Below, one piece after another: positions 2,920 to 19,326 of a stretch of 20,000 bases of DNA (the first letter of the stretch is position 1; each line of letters begins with the position of its first letter). The stretch lies in the IMG/VR virus record IMGVR_UViG_3300023371_000103; one strand, given 5' to 3'. The position numbers and the translations under genes are program-made. The notes under the pieces were generated by a model that did not search any database, had not been told where the DNA came from, and was given only the letters and a program-made list of their open reading frames with translations. Source of the DNA: an uncultured virus (IMG/VR IMGVR_UViG_3300023371_000103). Lineage: Duplodnaviria; Heunggongvirae; Uroviricota; Caudoviricetes.

Positions 2920-3271
2920 CGAGACGATCTGGGAAGATCCTCCGGCATCCATGATCCAGTTTATGGACTCCAAAAACCGGGAGCGGGCAGTGTCGGCAGA
3001 CTGGTTTTCCGGAGAAAAGCTGGAGCGTTTGAAGAAGGAAGCCGTGGTACGGCATGGACGGGAGCTTTCATGGGTAGGCATGGCGGAACTGGCATTGCGG
3101 CTGGAGTATGAAGATCAGCAAAAGGAACTGATGTCAGAGGAACCTGCTGCTGAGCCGGAGCCGATCCTGGAGGTTCAGGAAGAGGACTATCAGTCGCTTC
3201 TGTCTATTCTTACCCGGCAGGCGGTAAAAGAACAGAAGAAAGCAGAGGAGAGTATTCAGGACTGGTTCTGA
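2843..3271 (+). CDS. Hypothetical acidic protein (start uncertain: 2843 or 2897)
   Basis: Open frame 2795..3271, Glu-rich; TGATG coupling to the next gene. Confidence 0.65.
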   Translation: MQNLNSYRRLILKEDAPAMAGHLANDETIWEDPPASMIQFMDSKNRERAVSADWFSGEKLERLKKEAVVRHGRELSWVGMAELALRLEYEDQQKELMSEEPAAEPEPILEVQEEDYQSLLSILTRQAVKEQKKAEESIQDWF

Positions 3272-3759
3272 TGAGACTCTCGGAAGCGATACGGTTTCTA
3301 TTCCAGCGGAAGGAGTCTGTCCGCAGGCGTTCCTGGGATGCGAGCCGCCGGTTGGAATCGGAACCCATACAGGGTCTGATGTATGATCAGACAGGGAATA
3401 CACGAAAGATCTTCATTCCCGAACTGGATGACTATCTGGCGCAGGACTGGGTGTCCTGTTCCGGCGAAGAACTTGCGGAAAGCGAGGAAAAAGATACTAT
3501 AGAGAAGAGTATCTGCTGGATGCTTCTGACGCATGGTTTCGTGCGGAGAAGAGCATGGCACCCGCAGGCGTATGTGCATCTGCCGGAAGGCGGGCGGCTG
3601 CCGATGCTCCATAGTCTGACAGCGGGAATGGAAATGGATACGCTCCTGATACCTTCCAGGGAAGATTGCCTTGCGGAGGACTGGGGTTATTGTGACTTTA
3701 AGATAAGGAGAAAACATGGAAAAGACGACATTGATTTGCATTGCGGACGTTCTGCGTGA
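3271..3759 (+). CDS. Tandem two-domain DUF2829 (Tad2-like) protein, candidate anti-defence nucleotide sponge
   Basis: Two copies of the DUF2829 pattern: 'LSEAI...VRRRSW...FIPELDDYLAQDW' (aa 1-61) and 'IEKSI...VRRRAW...LIPSREDCLAEDW' (aa 77-138). Confidence 0.7.
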   Translation: MRLSEAIRFLFQRKESVRRRSWDASRRLESEPIQGLMYDQTGNTRKIFIPELDDYLAQDWVSCSGEELAESEEKDTIEKSICWMLLTHGFVRRRAWHPQAYVHLPEGGRLPMLHSLTAGMEMDTLLIPSREDCLAEDWGYCDFKIRRKHGKDDIDLHCGRSA

Positions 3760-8867: not shown

Positions 8868-8941
8868 TTTATTAAAAGTTTTGAGTCTTTCCTTTAATAA
8901 GGAAATTCTTATTAAACGTTTTGAGCGTTTCCTTTAATAAG
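8868..8941. repeat. Tandem 34-bp repeat (40-bp period), each unit with inverted ends
   Basis: TTTATTAAAAGTTTTGAGTCTTTCCTTTAATAAG (8868-8901) and CTTATTAAACGTTTTGAGCGTTTCCTTTAATAAG (8908-8941), 30/34 identical. Confidence 0.9.
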
Positions 8942-8942
8942 A

Positions 8943-8981
8943 AGACTTTTCGAGCCGGAGCGGTTCGGGAGGTCTGCTTTT
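8943..8981 (+). terminator. Long G.U-rich hairpin with short T-run
   Basis: AGACTTTTCGAGCCG-GAG-CGGTTCGGGAGGTCT pairs fully if G.U is allowed; followed by GCTTTT and RBS GGAG. Confidence 0.7.
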
Positions 8982-8993
8982 GTGGAGAAAGAA

Positions 8994-9962
8994 ATGGAAA
9001 AGAAATACTATTTTCTGAAAGATTCGGAAATTGGACTTAGATGTCTTCCGGCAGAAATGGCGGAAAAGGACATGCAGGAGATCTTCGGCTATCGGTTTCT
9101 TCTGCCGCGTGACCTGCGGGCTGAGGCGGAACGCCTGCAGGCTTTCAGTACCGCGGAAGGAGACTTGACTGCATTCTGTCCGGAGAACGCGGCGTACCGC
9201 CGCGTGACGGAAGAATATTCTCTTGAACTGAAACGTAACTACTTTGCATTTTTCGGCGGAAACGGGCGTGGTGACATCTGGTACTATTACGGGTGGCTTT
9301 GCACGCCGACGGAGTTCGCGGTCGCGTACCGGGAGATCTGGGATCGTTACCCGGCTCCGGAAGATTTTCTGGAAGACACCCGCGGAGCGGCAGATGAGGC
9401 TGCTGTGAGTCTGGATACGCTGCGGAACTCCGACACGCTGACGGAGCCGGATCTTTGCCAGCGGCTGACCGGGGGCGTTTTATATCTGCCGGAGGGGTTC
9501 AGGCGCGTGGGTCCCGGATTGCTTCAGGGAGATTTCTCGGTTGATGTACTTATCATTCCGGAAGGGTATGAAAGTATCGAGATGTCGGCATTTCGGAGGT
9601 GCGGCAATTTGCGTACGGTGATGTTTCCGTACTCGCTGCGGCATATTCGGGAACATGCGTTTGACGGATGCCGCCAGCTGCACTCGGTCCTTTCCTGGGG
9701 CGGTATTGAAACCATCGGAGAGGAAGCGTTCTATGGAAATGACTTCTGGTCCATTGAACTCCCGAACTCGGTACGGAGTATCGGGAAGCAGGCGTTTTAC
9801 TCTTCCCACTTCGCGTACGTGCATCTCGGCGAGGGAGTGGAAGTGGAAGAGGATTCGTTTCATAGCGATACCCTGTGTTATGCGCCGATGGATTCGGATA
9901 CGATGCGGCGGCTTTTGATCGCGGGGTGTAGAGTCAGGAGCTCAGGAGAAAATAAGAAATGA
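8994..9962 (+). CDS. BspA-type LRR protein 2 with an unrelated ~150-aa N-terminal domain
   Basis: C-terminal half has 'IIPEGYESIEMSAFRRCGNLRTVMFPYSLRHIREHAFDGC' and 'IELPNSVRSIGKQAF'. The N-terminal half is non-repetitive and aromatic-rich. Confidence 0.85.
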   Translation: MEKKYYFLKDSEIGLRCLPAEMAEKDMQEIFGYRFLLPRDLRAEAERLQAFSTAEGDLTAFCPENAAYRRVTEEYSLELKRNYFAFFGGNGRGDIWYYYGWLCTPTEFAVAYREIWDRYPAPEDFLEDTRGAADEAAVSLDTLRNSDTLTEPDLCQRLTGGVLYLPEGFRRVGPGLLQGDFSVDVLIIPEGYESIEMSAFRRCGNLRTVMFPYSLRHIREHAFDGCRQLHSVLSWGGIETIGEEAFYGNDFWSIELPNSVRSIGKQAFYSSHFAYVHLGEGVEVEEDSFHSDTLCYAPMDSDTMRRLLIAGCRVRSSGENKK

Positions 9963-10615
9963 AACAGCATTTGGTATTAAAAGACAGTGTTCTGAATGTT
10001 TACTGTGATACGATCCGGGACAAACAGTTTGCAGGATGGCGCGACATCCAGGAGATCGTGTTTCACTCGGAAGTGAAACGCATTGGAGAATCGGCGTTTG
10101 CGGGCTGTACCTGCCCAAGGGTTCATTTCAAGGAGGGGGTCGAATTTATTGAGGAGTGTGCCTTTTACGGTTCGACTCTGGAGGAGCTTTGTTTCGACAG
10201 GACCGTTTATTCGATCGGAGCGTTTGCCTTTGAAAATACGAATGTTGAAAAAGTGACTTTCGGAGGAGGTGTAGGTGCCCTAGGGAAGGGTGCGTTCAAG
10301 GGAAACTACTGGCTGGAGAAGTTCCATAATCCAGGTCCGCTGCTCAGGCTCGGAGACGGTGTTTTTCAGGATTGCGAAAAGCTGGAGGATGTTTCTCTTG
10401 GAAGCAGTATGGCTGCCCGGATGGGGGAGCGTATGTTCCAGAACTGTTCTCGGCTGCGGGATGTGATCCTGCCTCCGCGTTTGGAAAGTATTCCGTTGAA
10501 CACCTTTGACGGCTGTTTCAGTCTGGAAGAGGTGACGATGCCGAATGTTCTGACACGGGATGAACGGGAGCAGCTGTTTAAGGACAGTTACTCGTATCCT
10601 GTTATTAATAAATAA
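9959..10615 (+). CDS. BspA-type LRR protein 3
   Basis: 'VKRIGESAFAGC', 'VYSIGAFAF', 'LRDVILPPRLESIPLNTFDGCFSL'; ATGA overlap with the upstream gene. Confidence 0.9.
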   Translation: MKQHLVLKDSVLNVYCDTIRDKQFAGWRDIQEIVFHSEVKRIGESAFAGCTCPRVHFKEGVEFIEECAFYGSTLEELCFDRTVYSIGAFAFENTNVEKVTFGGGVGALGKGAFKGNYWLEKFHNPGPLLRLGDGVFQDCEKLEDVSLGSSMAARMGERMFQNCSRLRDVILPPRLESIPLNTFDGCFSLEEVTMPNVLTRDEREQLFKDSYSYPVINK

Positions 10616-10626
10616 TCGTGATTTCC

Positions 10627-10659
10627 GGAGGGGTCGAAAGGCTCCGCCTGTTTTGTTTT
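10627..10659 (+). terminator. Terminator-like hairpin, type A copy 1
   Basis: GGAGGGGTC-GAAA-GGCTCCGCC then TGTTTTGTTTT; 29/32 identical to 11704-11735. Confidence 0.7.
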
Positions 10660-10672
10660 GAGGAGGAAAAGT

Positions 10673-11686
10673 ATGTCAAAACTGTATCTGGATAAAAAGG
10701 TTATTTGTGAAAAGGACATTATAGACAAAGACGTTGAGGTGGTCGAACTTGGCTACGATGTCAAAAAGATCGAGGATGATGCCTTTCGGGAGCTGGGATC
10801 TCTTCGGGAAGTTACCTGTTACAGCAAGTGGGTAACACTGGGGAAGAGAGCGTTTGAGAACTGCACTTCTCTTGAGAAAGTGAAACTGCACACAGAATGT
10901 ATTCCGCCGGCATGTTTCAGGCATTGCGGCTCACTGCGGGAGTTCGACTTCACAGGAGTGAGACATATTCTGGTTGATGCTTTCGTGTGTTGTTTTTCTC
11001 TCGAAAAAGTAGACCGTCCAGAAGTGGAAGCGATCGAGTCTTTTGCATTTGACGGCTGTACGGGCCTCAAGGAGTTTGAAAGTGCGTTCCCTGAAGCATA
11101 CATTTCACCTTGTGCCTTCGACGACCACGTTAAAGTGTATCGTGCTGAGGAGAATGCAGGTGTCCGCCTGCTGCGGGACGGCGAGGTCCTTTGTTCGGGA
11201 CACCGCTGTACAGTAGACGCGTATGTCGTTCCGGACACTGTGAAGACGATCCAGCGGGCGGCATTCAAAGGCGCGACGATCGCATCTTTGACGGTTTCTG
11301 TGGAAGAGATACCAAGCAGCATGTGTGAGGAGTGCATTTGGCTCTCCTCTCTGGATCTGCAGGAGGGTGTGCGGCATATCCGGGACTATGCCTTTGCTGG
11401 CTGCCAGCGGCTGCATAGGCTGGTACTTCCAGAGGGGCTGGAGTCTATCGGGCCGTATGCTTTTTCCGGTTCGGGAGTTGAGACCGTGCAGTGGCCCTCG
11501 ACGCTAAGGGTCATCGAAGAAGCGGCTTTCTTAGACATAAAACTGAAAGAGACGTCACTTCCGGATTCGGTAGTGTACATCGGCGACGCGGCATTCGATG
11601 GACTTCGGCGTGTCAGCGTGAGTAAAAACACGTACTGTCATCCGAATGCGTTTCCGGAGAACTGTATCGTAGAGTATCGTGATTAA
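10673..11686 (+). CDS. BspA-type LRR protein 4
   Basis: RBS AGGAGG; 337 aa in two LRR blocks, e.g. 'LVLPEGLESIGPYAFSGS', 'LPDSVVYIGDAAF'. Confidence 0.9.
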   Translation: MSKLYLDKKVICEKDIIDKDVEVVELGYDVKKIEDDAFRELGSLREVTCYSKWVTLGKRAFENCTSLEKVKLHTECIPPACFRHCGSLREFDFTGVRHILVDAFVCCFSLEKVDRPEVEAIESFAFDGCTGLKEFESAFPEAYISPCAFDDHVKVYRAEENAGVRLLRDGEVLCSGHRCTVDAYVVPDTVKTIQRAAFKGATIASLTVSVEEIPSSMCEECIWLSSLDLQEGVRHIRDYAFAGCQRLHRLVLPEGLESIGPYAFSGSGVETVQWPSTLRVIEEAAFLDIKLKETSLPDSVVYIGDAAFDGLRRVSVSKNTYCHPNAFPENCIVEYRD

Positions 11687-11703
11687 ACAGAATTAAGTTG
11701 TTG

Positions 11704-11735
11704 GGCGGGGTCGAGAGGCTCCGCCGGTTTTGTTT
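11704..11735 (+). terminator. Terminator hairpin, type A copy 2
   Basis: GGCGGGGTC-GAGA-GGCTCCGCC then GGTTTTGTTT. Confidence 0.8.
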
Positions 11736-11749
11736 ATAAGGAGAAAGAG

Positions 11750-12355
11750 ATGGCTTTTACGGCAGTACTGGAAAAGTATACCAAACGTGCACTGATGTTA
11801 GCGGCAGGAGAACACAGGTTTCTGTTTTACGATGATAACGGTGATCACGAGTTGCGGGATCTTCCGGAGGGGAAGACAGCTTGGGATTGCGCGAAAGAGA
11901 TCTGTGGAGAGCGCTGGGAAGAAGAAAAGCAGTTCTGGGACGGATACAGGCCTGACCTGTGCCGAATGAATGACGGTGCAGGAGGCATGTGTACGGTCCG
12001 GTGCGCAACGCTGACGGAATTGAAGAAGCTGCGTGTGAGCATCGACAGCTTTCGCGACTCCGAGGACTGGACGAAAGCTGCGTGGGAAGGACTTCAGAAG
12101 GAGCAGTACACATGCGACGGCTTTCGCGTCTGGCGGTTCTTTCGCAATTTCGGTACGGGATGGCGTCCGTGGTTCATTTTGAGTACGCTCCTTGGGGATG
12201 AGCCGGAGATAATGGAAGATTTTATCAAATCGGAACTTTACAGGGTCCTTCCTTTTGATGAGTATGCTCGTCACACCAGTTCCTGCGATACGGAATGGGC
12301 TGTTGTTTACAATGACACGTTCAGTGACAGAAGAATTGAGGAGGATCCGGAATGA
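11750..12355 (+). CDS. Hypothetical protein
   Basis: RBS AAGGAG; 201 aa; ATGA coupling downstream. Confidence 0.75.
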   Translation: MAFTAVLEKYTKRALMLAAGEHRFLFYDDNGDHELRDLPEGKTAWDCAKEICGERWEEEKQFWDGYRPDLCRMNDGAGGMCTVRCATLTELKKLRVSIDSFRDSEDWTKAAWEGLQKEQYTCDGFRVWRFFRNFGTGWRPWFILSTLLGDEPEIMEDFIKSELYRVLPFDEYARHTSSCDTEWAVVYNDTFSDRRIEEDPE

Positions 12356-12864
12356 TCATTATCGAAAGACCATCACTTCATATTGAAGTGGAAAAGACGG
12401 ACCGTCCGGAACTGCATAGGGAGTACCGGCTGTGTACGTTCCTCTCGGATCGGGAGGATCTGCCGTCGGATACGCTGGATCCGGAAGCGGAAGTGATCTT
12501 CCGGACGCCTGTCTATCTGTTTGAGGTGGACGGGGAAAAGGTGTTGAGCGTCTTTGAGGATGCCTGCGCTGCAGAAAGTACGTTCTGCGGAGAAGCGTGT
12601 GTTACGAAGGAGACGCTTAAAAAGCGCGGATATGACAACGATAACGCGCTGTGCTATATCCGCGGACTGCTGGAAGCGGATCTGGCGTTCTTCACACACG
12701 GTCTGAATGACAGACTGTATCGTGTGGGTGTCACGGTAAACGGTGAGGATTACATGCGGGATGCTGTGTTTCACCAGAACCACATTGAGACGGTCTTGAA
12801 TGTGGTTTGTATCAAGCATGGTGAAAACCCGTTGTCTCTTGAAGAAAGGAATAAGTTGCGATGA
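12352..12864 (+). CDS. Diverged paralogue of 6673..7239
   Basis: PVYLFEVDG/PVYLYVHSG; CGEACVTKE/WGVIRATKE; LEADLAFFTHGLNDRLYRV/LEGEIDILDTYIRGEVYRV. Confidence 0.65.
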   Translation: MIIIERPSLHIEVEKTDRPELHREYRLCTFLSDREDLPSDTLDPEAEVIFRTPVYLFEVDGEKVLSVFEDACAAESTFCGEACVTKETLKKRGYDNDNALCYIRGLLEADLAFFTHGLNDRLYRVGVTVNGEDYMRDAVFHQNHIETVLNVVCIKHGENPLSLEERNKLR

Positions 12865-13400
12865 GTTACGCGGACCAGAAATTGATGTACGTTGTGGACG
12901 GGGAAAGCCACTGGGTGAACGCGTGGCGAGAATCGGATGATGAGCTGACCTCTGAAGAGCTCTATCAGGAGGTGTATCCTGATGGAGACGGTCCCCGGAA
13001 TCTTCCCGGCTTCCGGTTCACAGACTACGGCTGGTACGTGATCGGCAAGCCGTGTTACAGGGCGTATGTCTGTACGTTTCGGGAGCTGGCGGAGCAGCTC
13101 CTTCGGGAAGGCCGAAGTGCTGAGGACATCCTGAAGGATGACTTCCAGGGGCCGCTTCACTGGGACAAGGCTATGTGGGAGATCCTCAAGGAGAAGGGTT
13201 TGATACCGAAGAGAAGGTTCCGGGTGAAAGTCAATTGGAAGATCGTGCAGTACAAAGAGGAGGAATACGATGTCGAGGCGTATACCCGGGAAGAAGCCGA
13301 AAGGCTGGCGTATGATCTCTGGGATAACACAGAGGAAGAGCCGCAGGACGGTCGGCTGATGGATTATGACGTAACTCAGATATATGAGGTGGAGCCATGA
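12861..13400 (+). CDS. Hypothetical protein: N-terminal domain X plus C-terminal DpnD/PcfM-like module
   Basis: C-terminal 'RFRVKVNW...YDVEAYTREEAERLA'; the N-terminus resembles the C-terminus of the next gene. Confidence 0.7.
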   Translation: MSYADQKLMYVVDGESHWVNAWRESDDELTSEELYQEVYPDGDGPRNLPGFRFTDYGWYVIGKPCYRAYVCTFRELAEQLLREGRSAEDILKDDFQGPLHWDKAMWEILKEKGLIPKRRFRVKVNWKIVQYKEEEYDVEAYTREEAERLAYDLWDNTEEEPQDGRLMDYDVTQIYEVEP

Positions 13401-13963
13401 AAAAATTTGAAGTTGAGATCCGCTGGACAAGATGTGAACAAATGCAGCGTACCTACGAGGTCGCGGCGGAGACAGAAGAAGAGGCGATCCGCAAGGCATG
13501 GGAAGAGTGGGACTACGATGTCGTCGGAGACAGTACACGGGATGAAGATGTGTATTCCTGCGACCTGGTAGAAGAATATGAGGAGGAAGAGGATGAGGAC
13601 AGGATGAGGACTAAGAGAGTTTTCGTACATGAACGTTCCAGTACCGGTTTCTGGCTGTCTCCCTGGACGGAGGAAGACATGAAGAAGACCGGACGGCAGC
13701 TCTATGAGGAACATTGCGAGCCTGTCGACGTCTCCGAAGAGTGCGGAGCGGAGCTAACGTTTGACAGGCACGGCTGGCTCGCGCAGTATCCGGACGGTGA
13801 GTATGACGCTGGTGTGGTCATGCGACTGGATTGTATATTCGAGGAGTTGTTCAAGTATGTGGATACACTCGAGGAGCTGCTTACTTGTCCTATGAATCCC
13901 AGCGACATCCCGGAATGGGAAGCTGCTATGCGGGAGCTGTGGGAAGAAAAACAAAGAGCTTGA
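13397..13963 (+). CDS. Acidic hypothetical protein: N-terminal DpnD/PcfM-like module plus domain X
   Basis: 'MKKFEVEIRW...YEVAAETEEEAIRKA'; ATGA overlap; RBS GAGGTGGAG. Confidence 0.7.
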   Translation: MKKFEVEIRWTRCEQMQRTYEVAAETEEEAIRKAWEEWDYDVVGDSTRDEDVYSCDLVEEYEEEEDEDRMRTKRVFVHERSSTGFWLSPWTEEDMKKTGRQLYEEHCEPVDVSEECGAELTFDRHGWLAQYPDGEYDAGVVMRLDCIFEELFKYVDTLEELLTCPMNPSDIPEWEAAMRELWEEKQRA

Positions 13964-16505: not shown

Positions 16506-17093
16506 ATGTTTGAAGAGATGGTTTGGTATCAGCATAATCTCGACATTTTCCCCGGCTTCTACTGCACCATCCTCGAAGGAGATGACGCGATCGATCTGGT
16601 GTCAGAGTACGAGGGGTCGCCGATGACCTTCAAGCCGGGGGTCTTCCCGGACTACATGAGGGCGGTCTCGAAGAGGTACGTCAAACGGCTGGAATACGAG
16701 GTGACAAAGGACATGGGGCAAATGATCCGGGATCTGAAACTGGAAGAGGTCCGTTCGCCGAAGTATTACAACTTCGAGACGGACAAGCTGTCGATTCGGC
16801 TGAAGGTTAATAAATGGAATGTTCTCCGGGAACTTGTGAAAAACAAGGAGGACTTCAACCAGTACTTGCGAGAACATTATACAAGTCGTTCAGGATTCAT
16901 CAGCTTCGTGGAGACGGAGATCCACGAGCTGTGGCGGCAGAAAAAGTATTTCTGGGACGTCGCTCTTGACTACCTGATCCTGAAACAGAAGTTCTTTGAT
17001 GACGTGAACGATGAGGATGGGTCCAAGAGCTATTGGGCACTTGCCCAGATCGTGGATGACGTCATCCCGGAGTTTCTGGAACCGGTAAAGTGA
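16506..17093 (+). CDS. Conserved phage hypothetical protein (FPGFY / SPxxYNFxTD / TSRxGFIS family)
   Basis: Motifs 'IFPGFY', 'SPKYYNFETD', 'YTSRSGFISF'; RBS AAGGAG. Confidence 0.75.
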   Translation: MFEEMVWYQHNLDIFPGFYCTILEGDDAIDLVSEYEGSPMTFKPGVFPDYMRAVSKRYVKRLEYEVTKDMGQMIRDLKLEEVRSPKYYNFETDKLSIRLKVNKWNVLRELVKNKEDFNQYLREHYTSRSGFISFVETEIHELWRQKKYFWDVALDYLILKQKFFDDVNDEDGSKSYWALAQIVDDVIPEFLEPVK

Positions 17094-17107
17094 GTTTTGA
17101 AACAGGA

Positions 17108-17150
17108 TCGGATCTGAGAGCGGACGGCTTTCAGGTCCGGTTTTTTATTT
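17108..17150 (+). terminator. Terminator hairpin, type B copy 1
   Basis: TCGGATCTGAGAGC-GGACG-GCTTTCAGGTCCGG then TTTTTTATTT; 17110-17145 is 35/36 identical to 18619-18654. Confidence 0.85.
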
Positions 17151-17164
17151 CAGGAGAAGGAATT

Positions 17165-18592
17165 ATGAAAACAGTGTGTGTGAATGGAATGCGTTTCGAA
17201 CTTCACGAGGATCATGCGGAACTTTGCTCCGCGGAAGCGGGGCTGGAAAGGGCGGTGATCCCTGACGAGGTGGAAGGGCTGCCGGTCACGGTCTTGAAAA
17301 GCAGAGTATTCGCCCGCAGCAAAGCACTTCAGGAAGTTGTGTTTCCGAAGTATCTGGAGCGGATCGACCTCCACTGTTTTGAACAGTGCTTCCTGCTGGA
17401 CAGACTGGAGTTTCCAGAGTCGCTGAAATGGATCTGCCAGGGAGCATTTGAGTACTGCTGGGGTCTTCAGAGTATTCATATCAATTCCCGGTGCAGTCTG
17501 GGTGACTTCGCATTTTCGAACTGTACGTCTCTGCGGGTGGTACAGCTCGAAGATGTTACGGACCTGGGTCTCTACGTGTTCCACGGGTGCAAGAAGCTGG
17601 AGTACATTACAGGAGACATGTACCTGAGTGAGATCGGATTCGGCGCCTTCTGGGGGTGTGCCTCTCTTCAGAGGCTGGACACCTGCGCGAAGCGTGTTCG
17701 TACTTATGCCCTCGAAGGGTGTGACTCACTGACACACTTCATGTGTGCTGCAAACTGCGTGCTGGATCCTGCCTGCGGTCTGTCGGATCTTATGAATCTC
17801 CAGAGGGTGGACGGTGCCGGGCTGGACAGCGATGGACTTTTTGTGTATACGCCAGACGGGCGTATGGTCGCACATTATGTCACCTCTATGACCGGAACCA
17901 TGGAGCTGCCGGATACCATTACGCGGCTGTGTGAGAACGCATTTCGGGATTCTAAGCTGCGCAGAGTCGTCTTGCCGGAGACGATCACGAGCCTGCCTCC
18001 GAGCTGCTTCAAGAATGCCGTTCAGCTTCAGGAGGTCATTGCACCGGGAGTTACGAAAGTCGCGGAAGGGTGCTTTTCGGGCTGTATCTCTCTGGAAAAG
18101 GTGGTGACAAAGCCGCTGAAGGAAGTGCACCCAGACGCGTTTAAGTACTGCCACCATCTGCAGGAGATCCGCCTGTCGCCAGAGTGTTCCTGCATCGGTT
18201 CCCGCGCGTTCATGAATTGCTTCCGCCTGCGGTCGGTTGAGGCGAAAGGGGTGGAACAAGTTTATCCCCGCGCGTTTGCATCCTGCGTCAATCTTCGCGA
18301 AATGCCGGATATGCCGTATCTGCAAGCTGTGGGCTTCGGTGCGTTTTCCGGCTGTCCGAAGCTGACGCATCTGGAGTTTCCGGAGACGCTTCAGGTGATC
18401 AAGGAATACGCATTTGAAGATTGTTCTGGACTGAAGTCGATCAGTTTTCGCGGAGACGCATCGGGTAAGGTGCATGAGACGGCTTTTGATGAGAACTTCA
18501 AAAACGCGCTTTTTCTCGATCCTGAGCTGTTTTACACGGATGACGATCTTTGGCAAATGGACGAAGACGAGTACGAAGAAGACGGTGAGTGA
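17165..18592 (+). CDS. BspA-type LRR protein 5 (475 aa, Cys-rich, acidic tail)
   Basis: Cap 'AVIPDEVEGLPVTVL' and many 'LxxVxLPxxxxxIxxxAFxxC' repeats; RBS AGGAGAAGGA. Confidence 0.92.
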   Translation: MKTVCVNGMRFELHEDHAELCSAEAGLERAVIPDEVEGLPVTVLKSRVFARSKALQEVVFPKYLERIDLHCFEQCFLLDRLEFPESLKWICQGAFEYCWGLQSIHINSRCSLGDFAFSNCTSLRVVQLEDVTDLGLYVFHGCKKLEYITGDMYLSEIGFGAFWGCASLQRLDTCAKRVRTYALEGCDSLTHFMCAANCVLDPACGLSDLMNLQRVDGAGLDSDGLFVYTPDGRMVAHYVTSMTGTMELPDTITRLCENAFRDSKLRRVVLPETITSLPPSCFKNAVQLQEVIAPGVTKVAEGCFSGCISLEKVVTKPLKEVHPDAFKYCHHLQEIRLSPECSCIGSRAFMNCFRLRSVEAKGVEQVYPRAFASCVNLREMPDMPYLQAVGFGAFSGCPKLTHLEFPETLQVIKEYAFEDCSGLKSISFRGDASGKVHETAFDENFKNALFLDPELFYTDDDLWQMDEDEYEEDGE

Positions 18593-18618
18593 CCGGCTTG
18601 AGTTAAACAGTTGAGATG

Positions 18619-18658
18619 GGACCTGAGAGCGGACGGCTTTCAGGTCCGGTTTTTATTT
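18619..18658 (+). terminator. Terminator hairpin, type B copy 2
   Basis: GGACCTGAGAGC-GGACG-GCTTTCAGGTCC then GGTTTTTATTT, then RBS GGAGGAGG. Confidence 0.85.
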
Positions 18659-18672
18659 GGAGGAGGTGTTTA

Positions 18673-19326
18673 ATGGAACCTGTATTTTCAGAAGACGGCA
18701 AGGTATTGATCCGGTATCCGGTGGAGAGCCGGAGGCGAAAATATAAAGTTCCGGAAGGCGTGGAGGAGATCGCGGAAGGCGCTTTCCGTAACGGCCGCTA
18801 TCTCTGGAGCGTTTCCCTGCCTGAAAGCATTAAACGCATCGGAAACTTTGCGTTTGAGAACTGCTGGAGACTGCGGGAGATAGATTTCCCGGAGGGATTG
18901 AGCTGCATCGGTCGTCATGCGTTTTCACGATGCGAGCAGCTGAAAAAAGTGGACCTTCCTCACAGTCTGGAAAGTCTGGGTCCTGGGGCCTTTTCCTTTT
19001 GCTATGAGCTGACAGAGGTGAATGTGCACGGAAAGCTGTGGAACGTCCCCATCGGTGCCTTTAGCGACTGTTATGAGCTTGAAAAAGTCACTTTGGCAGC
19101 ATCGGTGCACACGCTGGAGTGCTGCGCCTTTGCACATTGTCCCCGCTTAATAGCCGTCGTGGTGAAGGGAAGACTGCGTCACATTGAGTATGGCGCGTTT
19201 GACTACTGTGCGCAACTGAATGTGTCGTCTATCGATCTATGCGGTGTGTATATCAGCAGTGGGGCGTTCTACGGCGTACTTGGCTGGACGCATGAGATCG
19301 GACGAGACAAGTCCGGACGTTTGTAG
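18673..19326 (+). CDS. BspA-type LRR protein 6
   Basis: Cap 'VFSEDGKVLIRYP...YKVPEGVEEIAEGAF' and canonical 23-aa repeats 'VSLPESIKRIGNFAFENCWRL'. Confidence 0.92.
   Translation: MEPVFSEDGKVLIRYPVESRRRKYKVPEGVEEIAEGAFRNGRYLWSVSLPESIKRIGNFAFENCWRLREIDFPEGLSCIGRHAFSRCEQLKKVDLPHSLESLGPGAFSFCYELTEVNVHGKLWNVPIGAFSDCYELEKVTLAASVHTLECCAFAHCPRLIAVVVKGRLRHIEYGAFDYCAQLNVSSIDLCGVYISSGAFYGVLGWTHEIGRDKSGRL

Follow-up and report, generated by a model that had tools for sequence, protein, structure and literature searches.

Paired intergenic hairpins around a leucine-rich-repeat gene in a large uncultured gut phage

Why should two intergenic hairpins of nearly the same sequence stand on either side of a single gene, when the genes that follow them are unrelated to each other? 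The question is raised by the genome of an uncultured virus of the Caudoviricetes (IMG/VR record IMGVR_UViG_3300023371_000103), of which one stretch of 20,000 nucleotides (nt), here called the window, was analysed. Within it a gene with leucine-rich repeats (LRRs), LRR4, lies between two hairpins that we call T1 and T2. We consider it probable, at roughly 0.6, that T1 and T2 are the decayed footprint of recombination between intergenic regulatory modules, the two copies being related by descent of one intercistronic module. Each module consists of a G+C-rich hairpin with a GNRA loop and a T-run, and then directly the ribosome-binding site of the next gene. The locus belongs to the + strand accessory-gene region of a phage of about 188 kb from animal gut metagenomes, in whose relatives whole-gene differences start and stop at intergenic modules (LRR5 together with one module copy, and the end of LRR3 at T1).

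The hairpin pair around LRR4

A sequence-only reading of this DNA had reported two 32-mers on the + strand, at 10627-10658 and 11704-11735, as identical at 29 of 32 positions, and both the coordinates and the identity were confirmed. The differences fall at position 3 (A/C), position 12 (in the loop) and position 23 (T/G). The GNRA loop seen in that reading is kept in both copies, as GAAA in T1 and GAGA in T2, and the C-G pair that closes it is common to both. The same reading held that the hairpins bracket exactly one gene and that this gene is unrelated to the one downstream. This is so: LRR4 is the only open reading frame (ORF) between them, and BLASTP finds no similarity between LRR4 and the ORF that starts at 11750. 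The features of the locus are as follows, with lengths in amino acids (aa).

LRR2, 8982-9962, + strand: 3' end overlapped by LRR3
LRR3, 9959-10615, + strand: 218 aa, BspA-type; Pfam LRR_5, E 1.5e-43; ends 12 nt before T1
T1, 10627-10658, + strand: hairpin with GAAA loop and interrupted T-run; A.G mismatch in the stem, 6 clean pairs
Ribosome-binding site (GAGGAGG) and spacer of LRR4, 10660-10672, + strand
LRR4, 10673-11686, + strand: 337 aa, BspA-type; Pfam LRR_5, E 4.9e-59; PHROG 35892 and 18805
T2, 11704-11735, + strand: 9-bp hairpin with GAGA loop and a TTTTGTTT run; the better-formed terminator copy
Hypothetical gene, 11750-12355, + strand: 201 aa, 3' of T2, unrelated to LRR4

The likeness of T1 and T2 points to copying, not to chance or convergence. 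When the 22-nt hairpin was used as a pattern with up to three mismatches, its only matches in the window were T1 and T2, and none of 200 shuffled sequences held two matches. A third copy was absent from both strands of the 187,654-bp genome at up to eight substitutions over 32 nt. We also collected 105 terminator-like hairpins throughout the genome and compared them in the same 32-nt frame. Over the resulting 5455 pairs the mean identity is 10.2 of 32 (standard deviation [sd] 2.7), against 29 for T1 and T2. The only higher pair, at 30, is a coding repeat within a giant LRR gene, and the next below reaches 21. Because terminators as a class are so dissimilar in this genome, their function alone is insufficient to account for the likeness. 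A word-7 search of 31,448 nt of intergenic DNA likewise recovers the pair, with an E value of 9e-8, and the two copies sit in adjacent intergenic regions. Against these figures, a chance likeness, or the convergence of two independent terminators, has a practically negligible probability, even though a similar hairpin is present in an unrelated viral contig and the window holds no excess of terminator-like sites (21, where shuffled sequences average 17.3 [sd 4.3]).

The copies differ in how well they fold. The stem of T2 has nine pairs, seven of them G-C, and its fold of -20 kcal/mol (z -2.95) is equalled in only 1 of 200 shuffles. In T1 the A.G mismatch lies at the base of the stem, so that this copy folds only as a 6-bp helix. 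A T-run of the type TTTTGTTT follows each hairpin, beginning 2 nt past the stem in T2 and 4 nt past it in T1. The features of an intrinsic terminator, a G+C-rich stem-loop with a U-run located past a stop codon, are thus present in T2 and weakly present in T1.

T1 begins 12 nt past the stop codon of LRR3 and T2 18 nt past that of LRR4, and within about 15 nt on the 3' side of each hairpin come the ribosome-binding site and ATG of the next gene (LRR4 at 10673, the hypothetical gene at 11750). The spacers measure 57 nt (T1) and 63 nt (T2) from stop to ATG. Beyond the hairpins a weaker likeness takes in the ribosome-binding site and reaches the ATG (43 nt, 81%). On the 5' side the spacers cannot be convincingly aligned, and the similarity ends at the upstream stop-codon region. 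The longest word common to T1 and T2 is 10 nt.

A promoter scan of the + strand detected no promoter-like site in either spacer (10616-10672 for T1), and a promoter-like motif that recurs at seven intergenic sites in the genome is absent from both. With no promoter of its own, LRR4 depends on transcription that enters from upstream through T1, which would therefore only attenuate it; T1 is probably a leaky terminator or an attenuator, and T2 probably ends or dampens the LRR2-LRR4 transcript. The hairpin copies are private to the locus and frame LRR4 as a one-gene cassette.

The conserved loop with its C-G closing pair, and a T1 that makes no full stop ahead of a promoterless gene, would also suit a sequence-specific RNA element, such as a protein-binding or processing site or a 3' stabiliser, needed at both ends of the LRR4 message. 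We regard such an element as improbable. It would exist in just two copies in the genome, with a loop that differs between them (GAAA/GAGA) and a broken base pair in one, and the other LRR genes have unrelated hairpins. Rfam returned no family at its gathering score for the whole window, or at E values up to 1 for 10500-11850.

How old are the spacers relative to the genes that they separate? LRR3 and LRR4 share 32% amino-acid identity over 86 aa, each matches other paralogues better, and all the LRR paralogues are 25-51% identical among themselves. At the nucleotide level LRR3 and LRR4 align at best with 57/85 identities, where the hairpins reach 29/32. When 5.8 billion protein clusters were searched, LRR4 fell with three clusters at 90-96% identity, the next being at 36% or less, and LRR3 with two clusters at 92-94%, the next being at 33%. 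LRR4 is not hyper-evolving, because the identity of its orthologues in relatives (92.6-96.4%) resembles that of the orthologues of the neighbouring non-LRR gene at 11750 (95-97.5%). Given paralogues at 32%, orthologues at 90-96% and ordinary rates, the spacer copies are much younger than the adjoining genes, or else have been homogenised. A recent tandem duplication of gene plus terminator was therefore rejected, as LRR3 and LRR4 are not closest paralogues and their divergence is far beyond that of the hairpins.

An old tandem duplication has to be weighed separately. On that account T1/T2 would be the relic of an ancient doubling (LRR3-T1, LRR4-T2) whose terminators have stayed similar through selection or short-patch gene conversion, without any part in gene gain, loss or exchange. 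T1 and T2 do each lie directly 3' of an LRR_5 paralogue, and LRR genes do occur in tandem arrays here (a BspA-type LRR_5 domain was found by Pfam in 7 of the 30 window ORFs scanned). This origin is nevertheless unlikely: LRR3 and LRR4 have closer paralogues elsewhere, and, with LRR4 changing at its neighbour's rate, the genes come out as far older than the 91%-identical spacer. Two further observations, from related strains and from another region of the genome, bear on it below.

Some other properties of the locus complete its description. The G+C content of LRR4 is 0.475-0.55, with about 0.52 around it, and does not mark the gene as clearly foreign; its start is not signal-peptide-like. The hypothetical gene at 11750 had no match in Pfam, PHROG or NCBIfam. 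The spacer on the 5' side of LRR2 contains tandem 40-nt units (8869-8948), 83% identical, followed by a 15-bp hairpin (8943-8975).

Related strains and the sister pair

Contigs of four public runs (X7, X8, X12 and X18) were aligned to genome positions 53601-73600 at 85% likeness. The X7 strain is the same as ours, with 0 differences in the pieces compared, and those of X8, X12 and X18 differ by a few percent. A 15,569-nt contig of X12 matches from window position 10630, the fourth base of T1, through LRR4 and T2 and beyond; its further 12.4 kb upstream leave the last 517 nt of LRR3 uncovered, and nothing else in X12 covers them (at 85% likeness or more). In X18 one contig matches from 10630 to the end of T2 and another carries LRR3 and ends inside T1, and in X8 a contig has its start within T1. 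A contig of X18 continues past T1 by 1392 nt that fall outside the pieces compared. Among strains, similarity is thus bounded at T1. An uncovered stretch was taken as evidence in two cases only: LRR5 in X12, which a contig bridges, and the 517 nt in X12, for which the depth leaves no ambiguity.

The boundary bears in both directions on the old tandem duplication. The breaking of X18 contigs at T1 and T2 fits, weakly, with copies that are even more alike in that strain. Against an old tandem duplication stands the finding that whole-gene differences in relatives stop at the modules.

A second hairpin pair of the same architecture lies further along the window, around another LRR gene. The sequence-only reading, which placed it at 17110 and 18619, had called it unrelated in sequence to T1/T2, and the comparison bears this out; T-run and ribosome-binding site are all that the two pairs have in common. 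We refer to it as the sister pair.

Sister copy 1, 17106-17156, + strand: long hairpin and T-run between the gene at 16506 and LRR5
LRR5, 17165-18592, + strand: 475 aa; Pfam LRR_5, E 6.7e-73; bracketed by the sister pair
Sister copy 2, 18615-18665, + strand: hairpin between LRR5 and LRR6 (ATG at 18673)

The sister copies are 88% identical over 51 nt, with a perfect common run of 32 nt, and copy 1 folds at -32.3 kcal/mol (z -6.15). A contig of X12 (2998 nt) joins window position 17145 to 18669 with 15 letters between and more than 1 kb on each side; its depth of 21.4 equals that of its neighbours. It runs from the gene at 16506 through one hairpin, and then through 15 letters similar to the end of copy 2, into LRR6, skipping 17146-18668. 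The joint is not a collapsed repeat, because LRR5 is almost uncovered in X12 while its flanks stand at about 21. It is a precise empty site, with one hairpin and no LRR5. The strains of X8 and X18 possess LRR5, and their contigs are broken at each of the sister copies. Since even the most divergent of the lineages recognised has LRR5, at 90.6% identity, parsimony favours its loss from the X12 lineage through exchange between the copies. From this we infer that the younger sister pair, with its 32-nt perfect run, still recombines.

The sequence-only reading had proposed to look for empty-site alleles in relatives. One was found for the sister pair, in the single X12 contig, but no LRR4-less allele was found for T1/T2 in the four runs. 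As a separate observation, the gene 5' of the sister pair (16506-17093) has a distant paralogue 48 kb away, at genome positions 12145-12741, with 29% identity over 194 aa.

Searches beyond the four runs added no syntenic relatives. The window from 8900 to 13500 had no blastn match in the phage collection, and viral-contig scans seeded with the proteins of the 11750 ORF, the DNA polymerase and the 14041 ORF recovered no relative. The T1/T2 hairpin pattern had three unrelated matches in viral contigs, one of them an ordinary terminator in another virus, and none in metagenome contigs; the sister-hairpin pattern had none in viral contigs. A scan of genome contigs gave one irrelevant locus. A protein-seeded scan of metagenomes gave 80 loci, which were rejected as syntenic relatives: their identity is 28-56% over one N-terminal domain only, no second window gene is present in 77 of them, and the other 3 have only the 6583 ORF besides.

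Two other candidates were set aside. Contigs '20792' and '22108' had seemed to represent lineages without LRR4, as they carry the flanking genes and no listed LRR4 variant. This was dropped: the listing names a single contig, the longest, for every distinct protein, so that an identical LRR4 on either contig would not show. An extra protein between LRR4 and the 13397 gene, suggested by the order of accessions in an NCBI contig from a metagenome-assembled genome (MAG; five steps instead of four), was too indirect and went unused.

Local pairs and their genome setting

Is such pairing peculiar to these two genes? The sequence-only reading took two independent events of like architecture as the sign of a general route, which hairpins scattered over the whole genome without local pairing would have spoken against. 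The hairpins are not so scattered; they form private local pairs, each with a sequence of its own. A self dot-plot of the whole genome at word size 11, the means suggested for counting them, finds the sister pair but misses T1/T2, whose longest common word is 10 nt. All intergenic regions were therefore compared by word-7 search and Smith-Waterman alignment, with regions up to 4 kb apart counted as near and a score cut-off of 20. Scores of at least 20 were reached by 6 of 253 near pairs and by 8 of 5103 distant ones (Fisher p 2e-5). One near pair proved false, being LRR coding sequence miscalled as intergenic by a crude gene caller, and its removal leaves 5/252 (p 2e-4). The eight distant pairs reflect either a recurring promoter-like motif that they share or a segmental duplication between 137-148 kb and 177-181 kb. 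The five real local pairs are these.

Pair 1, window 10627 and 11704: T1/T2
Pair 2, window 17106 and 18615: the sister pair
Pair 3, genome 71629 and 72700: 109 nt, 92% identical
Pair 4, genome 72647 and 73382: 50 nt, 94% identical
Pair 5, genome 181189 and 183411: 28 nt

The general route thus draws support from local pairs beyond the original two; in three of the five the copies enclose one LRR gene (LRR4; LRR5; an LRR gene at genome 71757-72641). Pairs 3 and 4 interlock. Genome positions 71629-73431 hold two successive units, each bounded by the same 5' and 3' modules; the first unit contains an LRR gene and the second a couple of unrelated small ORFs. The 109-nt 5' module consists of a terminator hairpin, the promoter-like motif found at seven intergenic sites, and a leader hairpin. 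Because the same expression signals here surround unrelated cargo, this layout did not arise by divergence after duplication. It is the second observation that bears on an old tandem duplication as the source of T1/T2: the sister copies, each directly 5' of an LRR_5 gene (LRR5 and LRR6), are of the kind that such a duplication would leave, but the modules at 71.6-73.4 kb, which enclose an LRR gene and two unrelated small ORFs alike, are not. In run X8, similarity to the 71.6-73.4 kb region is lost 6 nt into its LRR gene.

The recurring promoter-like motif consists of CTTAAAAA, a short spacer and TTTTGAGGCATATA. It occurs 40-100 nt on the 5' side of start codons, often just past a terminator hairpin, and may represent a phage-specific promoter class. 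Its sites, all intergenic and on the + strand, are at genome positions 67364, 71679, 72751, 84398, 147012, 148004 and 180700. Segments of 64-409 nt, some of them intergenic DNA with this motif, are duplicated 33-40 kb apart between genome positions 137329-148956 and 177130-181622, at 82-94% identity.

The genome itself is a single contig of 187,654 bp with 52.6% G+C, in which the window occupies positions 43489-63488. The collection gives the virus record as about 94% complete and its class as linear. The ends of the contig (1-146 and 187509-187654) repeat each other over 146 nt at 96.6% despite that class, which could be the assembly overlap of a circular or terminally redundant genome. Three of the last six window bases (19995, 19996 and 20000) differ from the genome sequence, and the rest of the window is identical to it.

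Profile matches over the genome identify phage functions (a major-head-protein-like gene, a DNA polymerase, a primase and helicases), and the genome also encodes a UvsX-like recombinase, an SbcC-like nuclease, NrdD, ThyX, a dUTPase, a sigma factor, RNA-polymerase-beta-like giant genes and a Tad2-like gene. Near-identical DNA is held by runs from faeces and gut metagenomes, animal according to their records, and a related 73-kb contig was found in an NCBI MAG labelled Clostridia, a weak hint at a host in that class. Protein look-ups indicate related contigs of 189,372, 73,001, 22,108, 20,792, 15,454 and 10,727 nt; the 73,001-nt one is this MAG contig, and its proteins include MBQ9692912, MBQ9692917, MBQ9692924 and MBQ9692930.

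Nearly all window genes are on the + strand. The gene with a Tad2-like (Thoeris anti-defence 2) domain, at 3271-3759 of the window, falls in the same accessory block as the LRR genes, and a gene with a Fic/DOC domain (genome 73942-75030) lies somewhat beyond that block. A single giant ORF of 5011 codons made of LRR-type repeats is found at genome positions 154186-169221; a paralogue of 368 aa follows the giant ORF and is 47% identical to its C-terminal part. Outside the window, at genome 79212-79545, is a CRISPR-like mini-array of five identical 28-nt repeats and a degenerate sixth, with a 61-nt period; its spacers, of about 33 nt, are all different. It is adjoined by three ORFs on the - strand, of 312, 456 and 561 aa, none of which has a match in Pfam, PHROG or NCBIfam.

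Probable recombination between modules and comparison with known systems

In the recombination account of T1/T2, the pair would have been created by an exchange that involved intergenic modules. The route may have been a single crossover of a gene-plus-module circle or of a misaligned genome copy, or an unequal exchange between modules. A gene between two direct module copies is the layout to be expected, because insertion of a gene-plus-module circle by a single crossover necessarily leaves it. Enzymes for short-homology exchange are encoded in the UvsX-like recombinase and the SbcC-like nuclease. T1/T2 would be an older and partly decayed product, with LRR4 now fixed in the lineage; the event would be old because the copies have diverged by 9%, their runs of identity are 10 nt or shorter, and LRR4 is found in every lineage seen. 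The sequence-only reading had left a choice between an insertion that duplicates the local terminator and a recombination between terminators. The latter is upheld in outline, and directly for the sister pair, but a duplication of the terminator by insertion was not shown.

Several points weigh against this account. LRR4 orthologues occur in every lineage recognised (12 distinct protein variants in three clusters), and none of the four runs holds an allele that lacks LRR4, carries other cargo in its place or has a T1/T2 hybrid junction, LRR4 being present in all four. The empty site concerns the sister pair only, and comes from one contig of one run, from assembled contigs and not from reads. 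The upstream genes of both copies, LRR3 and LRR4, are LRR_5 genes, as a tandem duplication of gene plus terminator predicts, and gene conversion between old copies could also keep T1 and T2 alike. Without a common run of more than 10 nt the pair is a poor substrate for homologous exchange. Finally, the terminator activity of the copies is a prediction, and the 57-nt T1 spacer folds no better than shuffled sequence (-13.8 kcal/mol, z 0.17).

The nearest published parallel is found in T4-like phages. In phage RB49 two promoter early stem-loops (PeSLs) flank ORF192, and at the corresponding place phage phi1 carries only one (Arbiol et al. 2010, PMC2839356). That report proposes exchange between flanking PeSLs, which would produce a deletion and a mini-circle able to re-insert at another copy, and a later paper extends the PeSL account to other T4-like phages (Comeau et al. 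2014, PMC4122927). As portrayed there, PeSLs resemble the modules considered here in being short intergenic modules with a terminator stem-loop, placed between an upstream stop and a downstream Shine-Dalgarno sequence and start; in flanking non-essential genes in plastic regions, where relatives differ by having a gene with two modules or one module; and in that exchange between modules is the proposed cause. The difference between relatives is seen for the sister pair (in X12), whereas T1/T2 offers only the similarity boundary at T1 (in X12 and X18).

T1/T2 departs from the PeSLs of those descriptions in several respects. A PeSL contains a strong early promoter, and T1/T2 none; there are about 50 related PeSLs per genome, against a private pair of two copies; and a PeSL is about 100 bp long, against 32-49 nt. 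Moreover, the present phage is not T4-like, having multisubunit-RNA-polymerase-like genes and coming from gut metagenomes. The 109-nt modules at genome 71629 and 72700, with their terminator and promoter-like motif, are nearer to true PeSLs than T1/T2 is. By analogy, T1/T2 appears to work like PeSL cassettes without being a member of the PeSL family.

Other known elements resemble the pair in part. The morons of lambdoid and HK97-like phages are single accessory genes inserted between two genes, with a promoter of their own and a downstream terminator. LRR4 is likewise a single accessory gene with a downstream terminator (T2), but there is no promoter between LRR3 and LRR4, and morons are not defined by duplicated flanks. 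Repetitive extragenic palindromic (REP) sequences and bacterial interspersed mosaic elements (BIMEs) are, like T1/T2, G+C-rich intergenic hairpins; they can serve as terminators or stabilisers of mRNA and as recombination points, and are associated with a Y1 transposase. They number tens to hundreds of copies, whereas T1/T2 has two. The Y1_Tnp family (PF01797), to which the REP-associated tyrosine transposases (RAYTs) belong, had 0 matches in the genome; in a control the same search found the family in 6 of 14 reference genomes. In lambdoid phages, homologous recombination at conserved boundary or linker sequences, which are short and intergenic, lets related phages exchange neighbouring genes. 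Those sequences are shared between genomes at equivalent positions; here, in contrast, a single genome also carries the stretch twice, once on either side of a gene.

Integrons deserve a closer look. An integron cassette is a single gene without a promoter, behind which comes an imperfect palindrome; within one array these sites are alike and the genes are not. The palindrome, attC, has inverse core and core sites and spans roughly 57-141 bp, with the core motifs RYYYAAC and GTTRRRY. Integron elements have reportedly been found in phages (PMC9892861), and in our genome single promoterless genes are each followed by a hairpin and a tyrosine recombinase is encoded (at 170685-171821), so that the hairpins might be thought of as site-specific, integron-like recombination sites served by that enzyme. 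This is extremely improbable. T1 and T2 lack attC cores (RYYYAAC is absent within about 65 nt of either copy, and a single GTTRRRY occurs, near T2 only), and the 22-nt hairpin is far below the size of an attC. The different pairs are unrelated in sequence. No integron integrase, attI or Pc is adjacent; the only tyrosine recombinase found lies at a distance of 116 kb and falls far short of all NCBIfam cut-offs (33.9 bits for the best family, whose cut-off is 220), and it matches no integron-integrase family above threshold.

In sum, T1/T2 is not a strict PeSL, a moron, an attC site, a REP element or a member of a known RNA family. A bolder interpretation, which we rate as very improbable, would make the small LRR genes a true cassette array, each gene framed by hairpins whose structure is read by a phage recombination function dedicated to them; the repertoire would be shuffled, lost and regained between co-infecting relatives at a high, targeted rate. 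This would be a phage analogue of the integron built on terminators, with T1/T2 as one fixed boundary, and the LRR repertoire might then consist of counter-defence or host-interaction proteins.

The practical consequence of T1/T2 itself is small, since it appears to be an old fixed scar. For annotation there is a lesson: contigs of such phages break at repeats, and single-gene presence or absence should be sought there. The kind of genome plasticity is already known and the phage group is new for it. If recombination between modules did produce the pair, then recombination between duplicated intergenic expression signals, so far documented mainly for T4-type PeSLs, would not be limited to T4-type phages. 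A large phage of the gut, as yet uncultured, would have its accessory genome shaped in the same way, by terminator-only modules without promoters, and there would be a concrete and testable account of the turnover of BspA-type LRR genes beside a Tad2-like anti-defence gene.

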